From positions 1 through 24,583 of the forward strand of contig JBHLLU010000057.1 in the NCBI GenBank assembly GCA_048938895.1: 24,583 nucleotides of DNA. The letters are read 5' to 3'. Source of the DNA: Promethearchaeota archaeon (GTDB lineage: Archaea > Asgardarchaeota > Lokiarchaeia > Sigyniarchaeales > SOKP01). The translations under genes were made by a program, and so were the position numbers. Positions 2,391 to 8,889 of this stretch are shown piece after piece; the stretch's first letter is position 1, and each line of letters opens with the position of its first letter. The notes beneath the pieces are model-generated. The model did no database searches. It was given only the letters and a program-made list of their open reading frames with translations, and was not told where the DNA came from.

Positions 2391-4070
2391 ATGGCTATAA
2401 CTGCCTTATTTGCACTACTGTATGCTGTAGTCTTTGTGATCGGTGTGTGGTTTCTACCCTCTAACTTTATTGGCTTAGGTCTTATGATTGGATTTACATT
2501 GCTTATAATCTTGTTTCAGTATGGTATCTCACCTTATATCATTCAATGGATTTATAGAATTGACTGGATTCCATATGAGGAGTTTGCAGCTCGCTTTCCT
2601 CATATGGCTGATTCTCTAGATAAAGTTGTGGCTTACAATGGTATAAAGATGCCTCGTTTAGGTATAATTCACGATTTAAATCCTAATGCATTTACTTTTG
2701 GTCATACTAAAAATAATGCGAGAGTGGTAATAACCGATGGGATATTAGAATACTTAGATGAGAAAGAGCAAAATGCGGTTTTCTCGCATGAATTGGGCCA
2801 CGTTGTACATTCGGATTTTATCATTATGACAATCGTTTTCGCAATCCCATTAGTTTTGTTAACAATTGCTAGATGGGCTTATTATGCAAGCTGGTTCCAA
2901 TCTGGAAGAAGAAGATCAAGTGATAATGAGGGAAATATAATTGGACTTGTATTAATTGCAATCGCGGTATTATCCTATATTAGTTATTATTTAGGATATT
3001 TAATATCACTTATTGTGAGTAGGATTCGGGAATATTATGCAGATCAACATAGTGCAGAAGTATTAGAAGATCCAAATGCATTATCAACCGGTTTAGTCAA
3101 AATAGCATACGGATTATTGGTTGATGGTGATATTAAAGAAAGAAATAAATCCCCGGTCAGAGCACTTAGAGGATTGGGTATCTTTGATCCAAACACAGCA
3201 AAAGGTTTAGGTATTATAAGTGTAACCACTACAAGCGTTTTATCGATGGATGCTATTGAAAAAGCAGCAGCATGGGATTTATATAATCCTTGGGCAAAGT
3301 ATTTTCAAATCTTTTCCACTCATCCGTTACCCGCAAGAAGAATCCAGCGATTAAATGATCAATGTGAATTATATGGTAAAAAACCTGAAATCGATTTCTC
3401 TCATGCAAAACAACTCATGCATGAACAGGCGGGAAAAACACTCTGGGATGAATTCCTCTTTGATATATTTATGAAAGCACTCCCTACATTAATTTTTCTT
3501 GCGCTTGTAGGAACAACAATTGCGTGGTTATTTAGTCTTGCTGAACTCATAACAATATCCTTTTTGAATCCAAAGACTATGTTACTGTTGTGGGCTGTAG
3601 GATTCTATATAATTGGATTTGGGTCAATAATAAAGACAAAATACATGTATAAGAGTGGTTTTTCGGCAAAACGAGTTGTAGATCTTGTCACTAATGTTAA
3701 AGCGAGTCCTATGAGGTCTGTACCTGCAATCCTGGAGGGAACCATTGTAGGAAGGGGAATTCCGGGATATTATTTTAGCGAAGATATGTATTTCCAAGAT
3801 GATACTGGGCTGATGTATGTAGATTATCGGTTTGGCATTGGTATTGTAGACCTTATCTTTTCACTAAGAACAGTGAAAAGAATTGTAGGACAGAGAGTTA
3901 GGATTAAAGGATGGTACCGAAGAGGTCCCTCACCATATATACAAGTAGACACAATTGAAACTGAGTTGGGTCGCAGACATAGAAATTATGCAAAGCACTT
4001 AAGGTATATCTGGGCAGCATTAGCATTCATTCTAGGCTTAGGTTGTCTTTATTTTTGGTTTGTAATCTAA
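2391..4070 (+). CDS. htpX: Long-form HtpX / M48 family membrane Zn metalloprotease with an extra C-terminal membrane-anchored domain (true start may be ATA at 2367)
   Basis: PNAFTFG, HELGH (HExxH), SRIREYYAD and FSTHP motifs. Multiple hydrophobic helices and a ~230 aa C-terminal extension. Confidence 0.9.
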   Translation: MAITALFALLYAVVFVIGVWFLPSNFIGLGLMIGFTLLIILFQYGISPYIIQWIYRIDWIPYEEFAARFPHMADSLDKVVAYNGIKMPRLGIIHDLNPNAFTFGHTKNNARVVITDGILEYLDEKEQNAVFSHELGHVVHSDFIIMTIVFAIPLVLLTIARWAYYASWFQSGRRRSSDNEGNIIGLVLIAIAVLSYISYYLGYLISLIVSRIREYYADQHSAEVLEDPNALSTGLVKIAYGLLVDGDIKERNKSPVRALRGLGIFDPNTAKGLGIISVTTTSVLSMDAIEKAAAWDLYNPWAKYFQIFSTHPLPARRIQRLNDQCELYGKKPEIDFSHAKQLMHEQAGKTLWDEFLFDIFMKALPTLIFLALVGTTIAWLFSLAELITISFLNPKTMLLLWAVGFYIIGFGSIIKTKYMYKSGFSAKRVVDLVTNVKASPMRSVPAILEGTIVGRGIPGYYFSEDMYFQDDTGLMYVDYRFGIGIVDLIFSLRTVKRIVGQRVRIKGWYRRGPSPYIQVDTIETELGRRHRNYAKHLRYIWAALAFILGLGCLYFWFVI

Positions 4071-4461: not shown

Positions 4462-5454
4462 TTATTTTTCAAAAAATAGTTTCAAGATTTCTCCTGCTAA
4501 AGAATAGGGATCCATTGATTTTTTAATTGCTTTTTCAATAAATTCTTCAATTTTCTCATTCGTATTAATTAATTTTTCAGCTTTTTTAGTTAATTTATGT
4601 TTTAAAATCTGAATCGTCTCATTCTTAATACGATTTTTCATGTAATTTGAAATGACTCCTGAATTTTCTAAGAATTGTCTATGATTATTTATAAGTTCAA
4701 GTAGAATATCAAAATTTTCCCCAGTTTTTGAATTAACTTTTGTGATTTCTGGAGTCCATTGATCAATTTTATCAAAAACATCACCAATACGCTTAGATTC
4801 ATATTTATATTGTTTCCTAAATTCTAACATCTGCATGATATCTGCCACTTTTTTGTCTGCACCAGCCAAATCCATTTTGTTGACCACGAAGATATCTGTA
4901 ATTTCCATTATCCCTGCCTTAATTGCTTGAACCTCGTCTCCTAATCCAGGAACAACTAATACGACCACAGTTTGAGCAGATTTAAAGATATCAACTTCAG
5001 ATTGACCAACACCAACAGTTTCAACAATAATTACATCACATCCATAAGCATCTAATATTTTAATAACATCTTCAGTTGCTCTTGCTAATCCACCAAGTTG
5101 ACCTCGATTAGCCATGCTTCTAATAAAGACATTATCAAGAGAAAAGTATTGTTTCATACGTATTCTGTCTCCTAAAAGTGCTCCCCCGGTCAAAGGAGAA
5201 GTCGGGTCAACACATATTATCCCTACTTTCATACCTAAATCAAGATAATTTTTTGTAAGGGTCGAAATAAAAGTAGATTTTCCAGTACCAGGAGCACCAG
5301 TAATACCTATAATATATGCTTTACCTGTGTGTGGATATATTGAACTTATAATCATTTCAGCAGCTTCTATATCATTTTCCGCTATGGTTATTAACCTTGC
5401 TGCTGCACGAGTATTACCATTTATTAGTTTTTCAGTTAAATCAGAGTAATCCAT
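4462..5454 (-). CDS. meaB: MeaB/ArgK family G3E GTPase, chaperone of B12-dependent acyl-CoA mutase
   Basis: GAPGTGKST (Walker A), VDPTSP, GGALLGDRIRM, ETVGVGQSE and NKMD. Starts 7 nt after the stop of the mutase small subunit. Confidence 0.95.
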   Translation of the reverse strand: MDYSDLTEKLINGNTRAAARLITIAENDIEAAEMIISSIYPHTGKAYIIGITGAPGTGKSTFISTLTKNYLDLGMKVGIICVDPTSPLTGGALLGDRIRMKQYFSLDNVFIRSMANRGQLGGLARATEDVIKILDAYGCDVIIVETVGVGQSEVDIFKSAQTVVVLVVPGLGDEVQAIKAGIMEITDIFVVNKMDLAGADKKVADIMQMLEFRKQYKYESKRIGDVFDKIDQWTPEITKVNSKTGENFDILLELINNHRQFLENSGVISNYMKNRIKNETIQILKHKLTKKAEKLINTNEKIEEFIEKAIKKSMDPYSLAGEILKLFFEK

Positions 5455-5461
5455 TATAATA

Positions 5462-5889
5462 TTATCTTTTTAAATTGTTTTTAACGAATTCAACAATTGT
5501 ATTCAAATCGGTTCCCGGTCCGTAGAAACCTCTCAATCCTTTCTCTTCTAAAAAAGGTTTATCTTCGTCAGGTATAATACCACCTACAGCAACAAGGACA
5601 TCATCAATACCTTGTTCTTCTAATTTTTCCATAATCACTGGACAAAGAGCGTTGTGAGATCCAGATAATATACTTAGCATTACAGCATCTGGATCCTCTT
5701 GGATAACTGTGTTTACAATATCATCTGGTGTTTGATGGATTCCTGTATAAATTACTTCCATCCCTGCATCTCTTAATGCCCTAGCTAGTACTTTGGCTCC
5801 TCTATCATGCCCGTTTAACTTAGAGTCTCTAAGTCTCTATCTAGTCCGGGCTTGCATACTAGAACCTTTATTTTTCTATCAACTGACAT
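5462..5889 (-). CDS. Cobalamin-binding small subunit of acyl-CoA mutase (IcmB / methylmalonyl-CoA mutase C-terminal domain type), 133 aa; join of 5889-5841 and 5814-5462, interrupted by a 26-nt putative intron
   Basis: Exon 1 encodes MSVDRKIKVLVCKPGL plus the first base of Asp. Exon 2 encodes the rest of Asp then GHDRGAKVLARALRDAGMEVIYTG...SILSGSH...GGIIP...GPGT. Joined length is 402 nt, with the KPGLDGHDRG motif restored. The ORF track found only the last 99 aa. Confidence 0.92.
5815..5840 (-). other. Putative 26-nt bulge-helix-bulge (BHB) intron in mRNA
   Basis: mRNA reads GCCCG-GACU-AG^A-UAGAG-(ACUUAGAGA)-CUCUA-AGUU-AA^A-CGGGC. This gives a 5-bp exon stem, a 4-bp central helix, two 3-nt bulges and a 5-bp intron stem. 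Cutting after the second base of each bulge removes 26 nt and restores CUA GAC GGG CAU (L-D-G-H). Confidence 0.85.
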
Positions 5890-5967
5890 TGTTATGTAGA
5901 GTAAATTATTAAATATTTTATTTATTGCGATTTAACTTGAAGTATTGACATTATAAAAACAGTTAAT

Positions 5968-7203
5968 TCATTTTGATCTTTTTTCTATTAGTTCTTTCAG
6001 TTCTTTTAGAACAGCACTTCTCACTTTATCACCACCTCTACGTGAACCTGATTTTGGAGTTTTTTCTCTTGTTGGAGGAGGTAAAGTAAATGGAATCGAT
6101 TGTTCTGGTAATATTTTAGATGATTTTATTTTATCAGTGCTTTGTTTTAAGTTTTCTAAATTTTCTACCCGTTTTTCAATAGCGCTAAACTGAAACATTA
6201 CTGCTTCTGATAACCGAATAATCCCATTCAATGTAGATTCTAAAATTGAAGCCATTCCTTCTAATTTATGATCTGACAATGTAGCTGTTTTTTCCATAGT
6301 TTCCTTTAGGTATTTTGAGAATTTAGGTTCTTTTGCTAAAACTGAATAAATTGAACTTAAATATATTTCATAATCGAATTTTTTCTTGCCAATAAATGTT
6401 TTTTTTACAAGATCCTTTACAAGTTCAATGTTTAGTAATATTTCCGGATCATCTTTCACATCAGGATCAAATTTATGGATAAAAATTAAAATATGAGGAT
6501 TTTCTTCCAGTTTTTCAAGAATATCAAGTATATTTTTAAAATATTCAATACTACTCTTGTATTTTTCTGGAGCTTGAACATCTATCACATAAATTACTAA
6601 ATCTATTTTTAAGAAATACTTATGAGGTTTTTGAAGATACATTTGTCTATATTCTTCTTGACCCCCAAAATCCCAAATTATTAAAATTAAATCACTAGTA
6701 ACAATTTCTTGACGTTCGGCACCCTTTGTTGGTTTCAATCTAGCTAAATCTTTTATTCCGATTTCACCCCCAAACTTCTTTAGTATTGTTGTTTTCCCAG
6801 CATTACTCAAGCCGACTACAATTACTTTTTGTTCCTTTTTTAAATAAGAGATTGATTCTTCTCTAATTTTGTAAATAATTTTGCTAATCGTAATTGCTTT
6901 TATTAGTTTATCTTCAATTTCTAAATCAGTTTGAAGTAAATGCTCAATTCTTTTTTTGTTTTTTTTGTCTTCATATAACTGCTTAAAAGGTTGGCTGGCA
7001 TCTAATGAATTGAATTGTCCTATATGATCAATTTGAAACAAATCAGAAATAAGAGTAGCATCTGCATCGCTTAAAAAATTAAATGAAGATATTGGGAGAT
7101 ATAAAATATCATCTATTGAAGTTATTCTATCAAAATTAACTACTTGAGATTTATCCAAAAATTTGGAAATTAATTTTATTCTTTCATTCTGCTGTTTTGG
7201 CAT
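5968..7203 (-). CDS. Arf/Rag-like small GTPase-domain protein with N-terminal extension and proline-rich/helical C-terminal tail
   Basis: G1 GLSNAGKT, G2 PTKG, G3 WDFGGQ, G4 HKFD, G5-like SSI. Confidence 0.85.
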   Translation of the reverse strand: MPKQQNERIKLISKFLDKSQVVNFDRITSIDDILYLPISSFNFLSDADATLISDLFQIDHIGQFNSLDASQPFKQLYEDKKNKKRIEHLLQTDLEIEDKLIKAITISKIIYKIREESISYLKKEQKVIVVGLSNAGKTTILKKFGGEIGIKDLARLKPTKGAERQEIVTSDLILIIWDFGGQEEYRQMYLQKPHKYFLKIDLVIYVIDVQAPEKYKSSIEYFKNILDILEKLEENPHILIFIHKFDPDVKDDPEILLNIELVKDLVKKTFIGKKKFDYEIYLSSIYSVLAKEPKFSKYLKETMEKTATLSDHKLEGMASILESTLNGIIRLSEAVMFQFSAIEKRVENLENLKQSTDKIKSSKILPEQSIPFTLPPPTREKTPKSGSRRGGDKVRSAVLKELKELIEKRSK

Positions 7204-7233
7204 CTAGATTCAGTTTTAAAATTAAATATTAGA

Positions 7234-8889
7234 TTAGAAAATGGAATCTTCGTGATAAGTTCCAAAAACCTCTTTTAATGTATTGATAATTTCCCCGATG
7301 GAAGCATAAACTCTTATCGCATTCATAATATATGGCATTAGATTTTCTGTTCCTTGTGCAGCTTTCTTTAGATCTTTTAATTTCTCATTAACTTTATCGT
7401 TATTTCTGTCTTGCTTTAAATTATTTAATTTTCTCACTTGCTTTTTAGCAACTTCTTCGTCTATTTTCAAGAGTGGAACTGTACAAGGTTCCTTTTGTTG
7501 ATATTGATTGACTGCAACAATTGTTCTCTCTCGATTCTCGATTTCTTGTTGATATTTGTAGGATGCATTTGCTATTTCTTTTTGAAAGAAATTTGCTTTT
7601 ATCGCAGGAATAACACCTCCTAATTTATCAATTTGTTGAAAATATACTTCTGCTTCTTCTTCCATCTTATTGGTAAGCCATTCTACATAATAGGAGCCCG
7701 CTAAAGGATCAACAGTATCGGTCACCCCTGATTCATAGGCAATGATCTGTTGTGTCCTTAAAGCTATCTTAACAGCATTTTCTGTGGGGAGACATAATGC
7801 CTCGTCAAAAGAATTTGTATGTAATGATTGGGTCCCTCCTAACACAGCAGCTAATCCCTGAAGTGTGACTCGAACTATATTGTTTTCAGGTTCTTGAGCA
7901 GTTAAGGAAACTCCCGCTGTTTGGGTGTGAAATCGAAGTCGTAGGGATTCAGGCTTTTTTGCACCATATTTATTCTTCATATGCTTCGCCCAAATCCTTC
8001 TCGCGGCTCGATACTTGCAGACTTCCTCAAAGAAATTATTATGAGAATTAAAGAAAAATGACAAACGAGGGGCAAAATCATCCACATCCAAACCTCTTTC
8101 CATAGCAGCTTCAACATATGCAAAACCATCAGCTAAAGTGAAAGCCAATTCTTGAACAGCGGTAGAACCTGCTTCTCGAATATGATATCCACTTATACTA
8201 ATTGTATACCATTGAGGAACATACTTAGTACAATATTCTATGGTATCAACAATCAATCTCATTGACTCTTCGGGAGGGTAAATCCATGACTTCTGTGCGA
8301 TATATTCTTTTAGGATATCATTTTGAATAGTTCCTCGTAACTGTTCCGGAGTATGTCCTTGTTTCTCAGCAGTAACTATATACATCGCTAATAATATAGA
8401 TGCTGGGGCGTTAATAGTCATTGAAGTACTAATCTTTGAAAGGTCAATTCCATCAAATAAAGTTTCCATATCTTTAAGGGTATCAATTGCTACACCTTCC
8501 TTCCCGATTTCTCCCAAAGCTCTTTGATCTGTGGCTTCAATACCATAAATAGTATGTAAACTGAAAGCAACACTTAAGCCTGTTTGACCATGTTCAATCA
8601 AAAACTTATAACGGTTATTGGTTTGCTCTGCGGTTCCAAAACCTGCAAATTGTCTCATTGTCCATAATCGCCCCCGATACATGTTAGGATAAGCTCCTCG
8701 AGTAAACGGGTATTGACCAGGAAATCCCAAATCTAATTCATAATTTAGATCTTTAATATCATTCGGGGTGTAAAGTCTCTGAATTTCAATATCGGAAAGG
8801 TTTCGAAAAGATTTTCTTCGTTCTTTATTACTTGGTAATGAATTTTGCCATTCTTCCATATCTTCTTTAATTTTATCAAATTCTGTCAT
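7234..8889 (-). CDS. B12-dependent acyl-CoA mutase large subunit (methylmalonyl-CoA mutase family; isobutyryl-CoA mutase IcmA-like residues)
   Basis: PGQYPFTRG, WTMRQFAGFG, SMTINA, GTIQNDILKEY, ISISGYHIREAG, FHTQTAG, QSLHTNSFDEA, DPLAGSYYVE. 551 aa with no B12 domain; the small subunit and meaB are downstream. Confidence 0.95.
   Translation of the reverse strand: MTEFDKIKEDMEEWQNSLPSNKERRKSFRNLSDIEIQRLYTPNDIKDLNYELDLGFPGQYPFTRGAYPNMYRGRLWTMRQFAGFGTAEQTNNRYKFLIEHGQTGLSVAFSLHTIYGIEATDQRALGEIGKEGVAIDTLKDMETLFDGIDLSKISTSMTINAPASILLAMYIVTAEKQGHTPEQLRGTIQNDILKEYIAQKSWIYPPEESMRLIVDTIEYCTKYVPQWYTISISGYHIREAGSTAVQELAFTLADGFAYVEAAMERGLDVDDFAPRLSFFFNSHNNFFEEVCKYRAARRIWAKHMKNKYGAKKPESLRLRFHTQTAGVSLTAQEPENNIVRVTLQGLAAVLGGTQSLHTNSFDEALCLPTENAVKIALRTQQIIAYESGVTDTVDPLAGSYYVEWLTNKMEEEAEVYFQQIDKLGGVIPAIKANFFQKEIANASYKYQQEIENRERTIVAVNQYQQKEPCTVPLLKIDEEVAKKQVRKLNNLKQDRNNDKVNEKLKDLKKAAQGTENLMPYIMNAIRVYASIGEIINTLKEVFGTYHEDSIF

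Follow-up and report, generated by a model that had tools for sequence, protein, structure and literature searches.

Does a 26-nucleotide insert that breaks the reading frame of a metabolic gene disable that gene, or is it removed from the messenger by the machinery that splices tRNA? The question is raised by the minus strand of a 24,583-nucleotide stretch of DNA from a Promethearchaeota archaeon (Asgardarchaeota; Lokiarchaeia; Sigyniarchaeales; SOKP01), hereafter the window (GenBank assembly GCA_048938895.1, contig JBHLLU010000057.1, positions 1 to 24,583). An initial annotation, made by a model without database searches, read positions 5840-5815 as a bulge-helix-bulge (BHB) intron within the gene for the small subunit of a B12-dependent mutase. 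The analysis reported here makes it highly probable that 5840-5815 on the minus strand is a spliced BHB intron, of the kind otherwise found in tRNA and rRNA, which interrupts the coding sequence for the small subunit of methylmalonyl-CoA mutase.

An interrupted reading frame and its predicted repair

The minus-strand open reading frame (ORF) that starts at ATG 5889 reads MSVDRKIKVLVCKPGLDRDLETLS and is terminated by a stop codon at 5817-5815, leaving an ORF of 24 amino acids (5815-5889). Another frame of the same strand reads GHDRGAKVLARALRDAG... and runs for 116 residues up to the stop at 5464-5462. The window is densely coding, and this region is its sole stretch without a long ORF. Standard ORF calling returned only pieces of 24 and 99 amino acids here, compared with a subunit of 133 amino acids after excision; the expectation of the initial annotation that such a gene would be misread is borne out by these pieces.

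The part of the gene beyond the insert (exon 2) matches the B12-binding profile PF02310 (E 6e-22) from profile position 12 onward and TIGR00640 (acid_CoA_mut_C; E 2e-41) over positions 14-128 of 132. As the two matches begin at positions 12 and 14, the start of the domain is supplied by the part before the insert (exon 1). The profile matches, the neighbouring mutase genes and a DxHxxG motif that is complete only after excision identify the gene as that of a mutase small subunit. DxHxxG is, we assume, the name of the cobalamin-binding motif in this subunit.

The minimum free energy (MFE) structure that RNAfold computes for 5860-5800 is a strict hBHBh' motif (-15.6 kcal/mol). Its outer helix h has five G-C pairs plus two further pairs past a mismatch, its inner helix h' has 5 pairs, and each strand of the central helix is followed on its 3' side by a three-nucleotide bulge. 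The coordinates, ORFs and pairings proposed in the initial annotation all hold on the minus strand, and the MFE structure is the one it named. The archaeal tRNA splicing endonuclease EndA cuts a BHB after the second nucleotide of each bulge. Excision of 5840-5815 in silico according to this rule gives a product of 133 amino acids with the junction ...VCKPGLDGHDRGAKVL... and restores the Asp of the DxHxxG cobalamin-binding motif; no other cut gives the conserved Asp. The spliced product is collinear with, and equal in length to, three intronless orthologues, with which it shares 127, 126 and 122 of its 133 residues. Both the product length and the gene identity (PF02310, TIGR00640) that had been claimed for the 26-nucleotide excision are therefore upheld. 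A BHB core, the helices h and h', a plausible excision product, compensatory changes in relatives and host genes for EndA and RtcB were all found in silico.

We infer from these sequence features that the mutase pre-mRNA is cleaved and ligated in the cell. In the proposed course of events, the GCCCG and CGGGC exon sequences on either side of the intron would pair in the pre-mRNA, and four coding bases would pair with four intron bases, so that the two three-nucleotide bulges would be presented symmetrically. The two-subunit EndA of the host would then cut after the second base of each bulge, and RtcB would join the exons to give ...KPGL-D-GHDRG..., a protein of 133 amino acids in which the Asp of DxHxxG is restored.

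Presence of the insert in genomic DNA

Contigs of four sequencing runs were compared over 5300-6400. In run X2, from another sample of the same study, an 886-nucleotide contig spans 5615-6400 with 0 differences, insert included. Two contigs of run X3 (records 10 and 12) cover the insert from both sides, likewise without differences. Since the insert is present in independent contigs of other samples, it is genomic DNA. The contigs of run X6 left 5818-6039 uncovered and so bear on neither outcome. Run X5, from a different study, yielded a 2473-nucleotide contig that covers 5558-6398 with 48 other letters and is without 22+2+1+1 = 26 nucleotides within 5810-5838; this strain, about 94% identical, has an uninterrupted gene.

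Conservation of the structure and selection on the exons

The genus comprises 54 genomes, of which 38 have an orthologue at E <= 1e-50, giving 39 loci; the site was read in all 39. An insert is present at the same codon in seven of them, with a length of 26 nucleotides in G000, G020, G011, G022, G045 and G067 and of 28 nucleotides in G049. A pattern search recovered six of the seven insert loci, and the reversed control pattern none. The G049 locus was missed because of one C-to-U change in its outer helix. The order's other genera are represented by 11 retrieved orthologue loci (two more rows were left out), and none of these has an insert. The two additional bases of the G049 allele are confined to the hairpin. 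They alter the frame offset in the genome but leave the EndA junction as it is, so that splicing would yield an unaltered mature message.

Bulges and helices are kept in all seven insert-bearing alleles. Of the 119 pair cells in these alleles, 98.3% are paired, and displacing the partners by 1-3 columns lowers this to 15-51% (maximum 51.3%); helix by helix, h is paired in full (Table 1) and h' in 95.2% of cells. Changes on both sides were seen at seven pairs, namely all 6 pairs of the inner hairpin h' and one pair of the central helix, where the A-U pair of G000 (GACU/AGUU) is G-C in the six other alleles (GGCU/GGCU). In the outer helix, one C-to-U change is kept as a G-U pair. The full set of synonymous codons that h requires (AAG, CCC/CCT, GAC and GGG) is present in all 7 intron alleles, compared with 3 of 32 intronless ones, in which the commonest codons at these positions are AAA, CCA, GAT and GGT.

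Selection on the protein was equally evident. The dN/dS of exon 2 was 0.010-0.056 in 14 comparisons, which included intron-bearing pairs with saturated synonymous sites (dS 1.6-3.8), and exon 1 is intact and in frame, ending ...KIKVLVCKPGL, in all seven intron-bearing orthologues. Together these two results rule out a decaying pseudogene, and by their sequences the exons are under strong purifying selection. The initial annotation had asked for DNA reads carrying the insert and had named decayed, pseudogene-like inserts in relatives as an outcome that would count against an intron. The contigs of other samples carry the insert unchanged, and the relatives have inserts in which the BHB is preserved by compensatory changes.

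Distribution and history in relatives

A maximum-likelihood tree was computed from exon 2 (348 columns, 50 rows); the distribution of the seven intron alleles on it requires 7 changes, at least 6 of them forced by well-supported branches. The intron alleles are no more clustered on this tree than shuffled labels, and each is sister to an intronless allele; G049 and G019 form the closest pair of intron-bearing and intronless alleles (dS 0.25). The intron has existed long enough for its copies to diverge, but only a minority of species have it, and its scatter on the gene tree points to repeated loss and possibly to gain.

Two intronless alleles look like products of intron loss. Across the junction, G054 has the exact spliced form of a G020/G045-type allele (AAG CCC GGG CTT GAC GGG CAT GAC). 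G024 (L015) equals a G020/G045-type allele after a deletion between the two GGGCTT copies that form the central-helix strands, by which Asp becomes Asn. These sequences suggest precise loss as the route in G054 and deletion between repeats in G024. A loose end in run X2 has the same Asn form as G024. Asn replaces Asp at the first position of DxHxxG in 5 of the 32 intronless alleles of the genus (L008, L015, L044, L045 and L054).

Splicing machinery of the host

The genome (4.65 Mb, 31% G+C, 174 contigs, 7.49% contamination) encodes two EndA paralogues of 202 and 200 amino acids, which are 30% identical and both match PF01974 and PF02778, and has one gene for RtcB (PF01139). The EndA genes lie on contigs C83 and C123. 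A pairwise alignment places a Ser of the second EndA paralogue opposite a His of the first, within the stretch ...EHS...; this His is presumably a member of the catalytic triad. The alignment suggests one catalytic and one structural subunit. The accessible text of PMC5829648 describes an (alpha-beta)2 EndA with a broad-specificity loop in Asgard archaea, with which the two paralogues found here agree. Likewise, two EndA paralogues are given for 44 of 60 Asgard genomes in the accessible part of a recent preprint (bioRxiv 10.64898/2026.10.13.758758).

ARAGORN found only 34 tRNA genes in this genome, 17 of them with predicted introns (two implausibly long). Many tRNA genes were probably missed owing to heavy interruption. 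Asgard tRNA genes are described as heavily interrupted by introns in the accessible text of PMC11291895, and the ARAGORN counts are in line with this.

Other interrupted genes in the genome

Both strands of the whole 4.65-Mb genome were scanned with strict hBHBh' geometry, and other genes were claimed as interrupted only when they had been checked by homology. Among the 116 scan matches with at least 5 G-C pairs in h and the central helix H, two besides the mutase insert withstand inspection. One is a 30-nucleotide BHB insert at C101:4435-4464 (plus strand; L058:836-865), which contains two in-frame stops; its removal would fuse 162 with 304 open codons of an AIR-synthase-related gene. Exon 2 of this gene begins at position 43 of PF00586, and exon 1 has a DDAGAV motif, which we take to be typical of the N-terminal domain of the AIR-synthase family. 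The insert is present in 10 of the 46 genus loci read (nine of 30 nucleotides and one of 29), and its excision gives Thr-Arg, matching most intronless loci. Its pair cells are paired in 98.0% of cases; covariation was not above that of shuffles (168 of 500 as high). The argument for a putative intron in this gene is thus one of structure conservation and motif restoration, not of covariation.

The other is a 29-nucleotide hBHBh' insert at C12:120818-120846 (plus strand; L059:419-447), which splits CPF|CGTLCDD, a CxxCxxxC motif at the start of the formylmethanofuran dehydrogenase subunit B gene (fwdB). Exon 2 of fwdB matches TIGR03129 from position 7 (E 6e-179). This C12-type insert is present in 3 of the 42 genus loci read, with the hBHBh' fold in all three. 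Four other genomes (L086, L220, L223 and L230) have a different 29-nucleotide insert, type B, 7 nucleotides downstream. The MFE structure of the type B insert of G069 is not a BHB; by eye it has a relaxed form, with a central helix and an inner stem and without an outer helix. Type B is therefore a candidate only for an intron with a relaxed motif.

The remaining matches inspected were rejected. A match at C142:42512-42558, in a paralogous mutase-like cluster (L060), was spurious, as the gene is continuous in another frame. C141:15264-15282 is a continuous GGSSGG region and C150:13331-13267 an ordinary gene start. Matches in C100, C55, C162, C53, C88, C122, C83 and others gave unconvincing junction peptides. 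The cbf5 gene of this genome is uninterrupted (L231, C5:23828-24775, minus strand), with profile positions 5-319 in one open frame of 342 amino acids. A blastn-short search of the three introns against their own genome returned only chance-level matches of 11-16 nucleotides; as no further copies exist there, the three introns are not a dispersed repeat family.

On balance, we lean towards the view that the genus holds a small, evolving population of endonuclease-spliced mRNA introns. It would occupy four positions or more, spread over three metabolic genes (the mutase small subunit gene, the AIR-synthase-like gene, and fwdB at two sites 7 nucleotides apart), each in a minority of species and scattered on the tree, with losses that were either precise or by deletion between repeated helix strands. 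The broader proposal of the initial annotation that the lineage splices metabolic mRNAs gains strength from the two additional genes.

Alternative explanations

Several observations weigh against a spliced intron in the mutase gene or limit what the evidence for it can carry. The scan returned 41,663 BHB-like matches, 40,901 of them with an intron length of 16-120, so such matches are common by chance at 31% G+C. Those that join reading frames showed no excess over shifted sites (3630 versus 3531-3631 with a shift of 1-2 nucleotides; 231 versus 221-233; 45 versus 41-48), and the scan therefore cannot estimate the number of mRNA introns. The fold of the mutase insert is modest evidence (z = -2.87; 2 of 200 shuffles fold equally well). 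A BHB motif by itself proves nothing, and the fold alone is only moderately unusual. Although none of 500 shuffles matched the covariation values, this test overstates independence, as the seven alleles are related, and its result is not a probability. The number of gain and loss events is uncertain, given the short tree (348 columns) and possible recombination. Finally, none of the 16 sequencing runs listed as holding 4462-8889 of the window is on record as RNA. What places the mutase BHB far above chance is its position, precisely where the frame of a conserved gene is broken, together with its conservation and covariation in relatives. At least 6 G-C pairs in h and H, as in this insert, were seen in only 17 of the 40,901 matches.

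That assembly or binning created the insert is barely conceivable. The assembly is a fragmented metagenome of 174 contigs with 7.49% contamination, but the insert is unchanged in independent contigs of two other samples (X2 record 3; X3 records 10 and 12), and diverged versions occupy the same site in six other assemblies of different species. A real insertion that is never spliced out would leave the gene inactive or limit it to a truncated product from an internal start (e.g., Met 5761, 99 amino acids) without the His-ligand motif. The 24- and 99-amino-acid ORFs are what this would predict, and a paralogous small subunit encoded on C142 (47% identity) might compensate. However, the low dN/dS holds for exon 2 as a whole, the codons ahead of the internal Met included, and every one of the seven alleles has an unbroken exon 1 in frame. 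Compensatory changes have kept a perfect BHB in species with saturated synonymous divergence, and the allele that differs by 2 nucleotides in length has the same EndA junction. We therefore consider a dead or truncated gene very unlikely. Much the same small probability attaches to cleavage by EndA without rejoining, or without constant rejoining, which would make the BHB a regulated site of cleavage and decay or a splicing-dependent switch and not a constitutive intron. EndA is encoded in the genome, and removal of a BHB intron from a Haloferax 5' untranslated region (UTR) seems important for efficient expression of its gene, according to the accessible text of PMC7714728. A mere cleavage site would not need the precision seen here, though, where ligation restores the conserved motif exactly in seven of seven alleles, and RtcB is present as well.

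Translational bypassing would repair the frame without any splicing, if ribosomes hopped from the Leu codon ahead of the insert to a matching Leu codon near its end. Near-matching Leu codons do flank the gap, the central-helix strands forming a near direct repeat (GGGCUU...GGGCUU in most alleles), and hopping in G000 and four other alleles would give PGL-N-GHDR, with the Asn that occurs naturally in five intronless alleles. In the two remaining alleles (G067 and G022, reading ...GGGCUAUAC GGG), however, hopping would place Tyr at this motif position, a residue found there in none of 43 intronless alleles, whereas cuts by the EndA rule yield Asp in all seven alleles. Hopping also leaves the conserved exon-exon helix, the two exact three-nucleotide bulges and the covarying hairpin unexplained. 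Bypassing in T4 gene 60 requires a stop codon beside the take-off codon and a nascent-peptide signal; here no stop codon follows the take-off codon. In fwdB, no matching landing codon restores the frame, so that hopping cannot repair that gene. Taken together, these points make bypassing exceedingly improbable. The size of the insert (26 nucleotides), its in-frame stops and the 2-nucleotide length variant led us to reject inteins, programmed frameshifting and self-splicing introns of group I or II.

Gene neighborhood

The split gene shares a cluster with genes for the large mutase subunit and a MeaB-type GTPase (Table 1). The Arf/RagA-type GTPase gene between the two subunit genes encodes 411 amino acids with an N-terminal extension of about 120 and is an unusual partner in a mutase operon; its presence fits the assignment to a probable Asgard archaeon made before the source of the DNA was known. 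A second, paralogous mutase-like cluster lies elsewhere in this genome (G000 contig C142:41000-44400), where a large-subunit-like gene is followed by a small subunit gene whose product is 47% identical to that of the window. Searches of the window with Rfam and ARAGORN returned 0 families and 0 tRNAs.

Table 1. Features of the interrupted mutase gene and its neighbors, in window positions
Feature	Position	Strand	Remarks
Exon 1, methylmalonyl-CoA mutase small (B12-binding) subunit	5841..5889	-	ATG 5889; 16 codons (MSVDRKIKVLVCKPGL) and the first base of the Asp codon (G 5841)
Exon 2	5462..5814	-	AC (5814-5813) finishes the Asp codon; GHDRGAKV..., 116 amino acids; stop 5464-5462
Predicted BHB intron, 26 nucleotides	5815..5840	-	Third base of the 5' bulge, h' hairpin (5839-5821), 3' central-helix strand (5820-5817), first two bases of the 3' bulge
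Outer (exon-exon) helix h, 5' strand GCCCG	5847..5851	-	Pairs with 5809-5813; 100% of cells paired in 7 sequences
Outer helix h, 3' strand CGGGC	5809..5813	-	Pairs with 5847-5851
Central helix H (4 bp), 5' strand GACU (coding)	5843..5846	-	Pairs with AGUU 5817-5820, one G-U pair
5' three-nucleotide bulge AGA	5840..5842	-	Predicted cut between 5841 and 5840
3' three-nucleotide bulge AAA	5814..5816	-	Predicted cut between 5815 and 5814
Inner hairpin h'	5821..5839	-	UAGAG (5839-5835) / CUCUA (5825-5821), 9-nucleotide loop
Methylmalonyl-CoA mutase large subunit	7234..8889	-	PF01642, E 2.9e-226; same gene cluster as the split gene
Arf/RagA-type small GTPase, long N-terminal extension	5968..7203	-	PF04670, PF00025; between the large and small mutase subunits
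MeaB-type mutase-associated GTPase	4462..5454	-	PF03308, E 2.2e-85; directly downstream of the split gene

Comparison with known systems

If the introns are spliced as proposed, gain and loss of mRNA introns spliced by protein enzymes would be ongoing in close archaeal relatives of eukaryotes, and expression of the interrupted enzymes would depend on the capacity of the tRNA-splicing machinery. As gene callers split or truncate genes of this kind, metabolic reconstructions of Asgard archaea may wrongly score them as broken. With the loci described here, three questions can be addressed on actual substrates: whether messengers are cut by the Asgard (alpha-beta)2 endonuclease, by what routes such introns come and go, and whether the RNA structure around them shapes codon usage.

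A BHB intron in cbf5 of Crenarchaeota was reportedly described by Watanabe et al. in 2002. The accessible text of a later study places a BHB intron in the coding region of this pseudouridine synthase gene in Crenarchaeota (Yokobori et al. 2009, PMC2738675). Like the cbf5 intron, the mutase intron is a short BHB inside a coding region and a predicted substrate of the tRNA splicing endonuclease, in a host with a hetero-oligomeric EndA. Both occur in only part of the lineages, having been lost secondarily elsewhere, and both are overlooked by gene callers. Cbf5 is an RNA-modification enzyme of Crenarchaeota, whereas the host gene here encodes a subunit of a metabolic enzyme in a mesophile-like, AT-rich Asgard archaeon. 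Moreover, unlike that of the cbf5 intron, the presence of the mutase intron differs from species to species within a single genus (7 of 39 loci), and at least two other genes of the genome are interrupted likewise. Splicing of cbf5 has been shown experimentally, while the mutase intron is known from sequence; it would work like the cbf5 intron but outside that orthologous group.

The initial annotation had named crenarchaeal cbf5 as the protein-coding example it knew. This stands, but another mRNA BHB intron is in print: the accessible part of PMC7714728 reports one, with evidence in vivo and in vitro, in the 5' UTR of the Haloferax volcanii HVO_1309 mRNA. The mutase pre-mRNA would likewise be an mRNA substrate of EndA beyond tRNA and rRNA. 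The HVO_1309 intron is euryarchaeal and lies in an untranslated leader, where it does not interrupt a reading frame; the mutase intron is from an Asgard archaeon and splits one.

With the BHB introns of archaeal tRNA and rRNA, as far as the accessible portions of PMC11291895 and bioRxiv 10.64898/2026.10.13.758758 describe them, the mutase intron shares the hBHBh' geometry, a similar size, the same presumed enzymes and many lineage-specific gains and losses. It differs from them in that the host RNA is a messenger, so that codons form the outer helix together with half of the central one, which constrains synonymous sites.

In eukaryotes, HAC1 and XBP1 mRNAs undergo IRE1/RtcB splicing, and the XBP1 intron has 26 nucleotides. 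IRE1/RtcB mRNA splicing is also mentioned in the accessible text of PMC13149111. As in HAC1 and XBP1, a short mRNA intron would here be removed independently of the spliceosome by a protein endonuclease and an RtcB-type ligase, with a change of frame. In those messengers, however, the endonuclease IRE1 recognizes two stem-loops and not a BHB, and splicing is part of a regulated stress response; no homology between the introns is implied.

In the accessible part of a 2020 study, cbf5 is given as the only additional example reported to that date besides the study's own 5' UTR case (PMC7714728). Crenarchaeal cbf5 was also the only coding-region BHB intron of archaea that we found in the searchable literature, and no earlier report of BHB introns in Asgard mRNA was found there (subscription journals and supplements, including the Asgard intron lists of PMC11291895 and of the 2026 preprint, were outside its scope). 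What is new here is that a known but very rare kind of intron appears in new genes and a new phylum, in several genes per genome and with a presence that varies within a genus.

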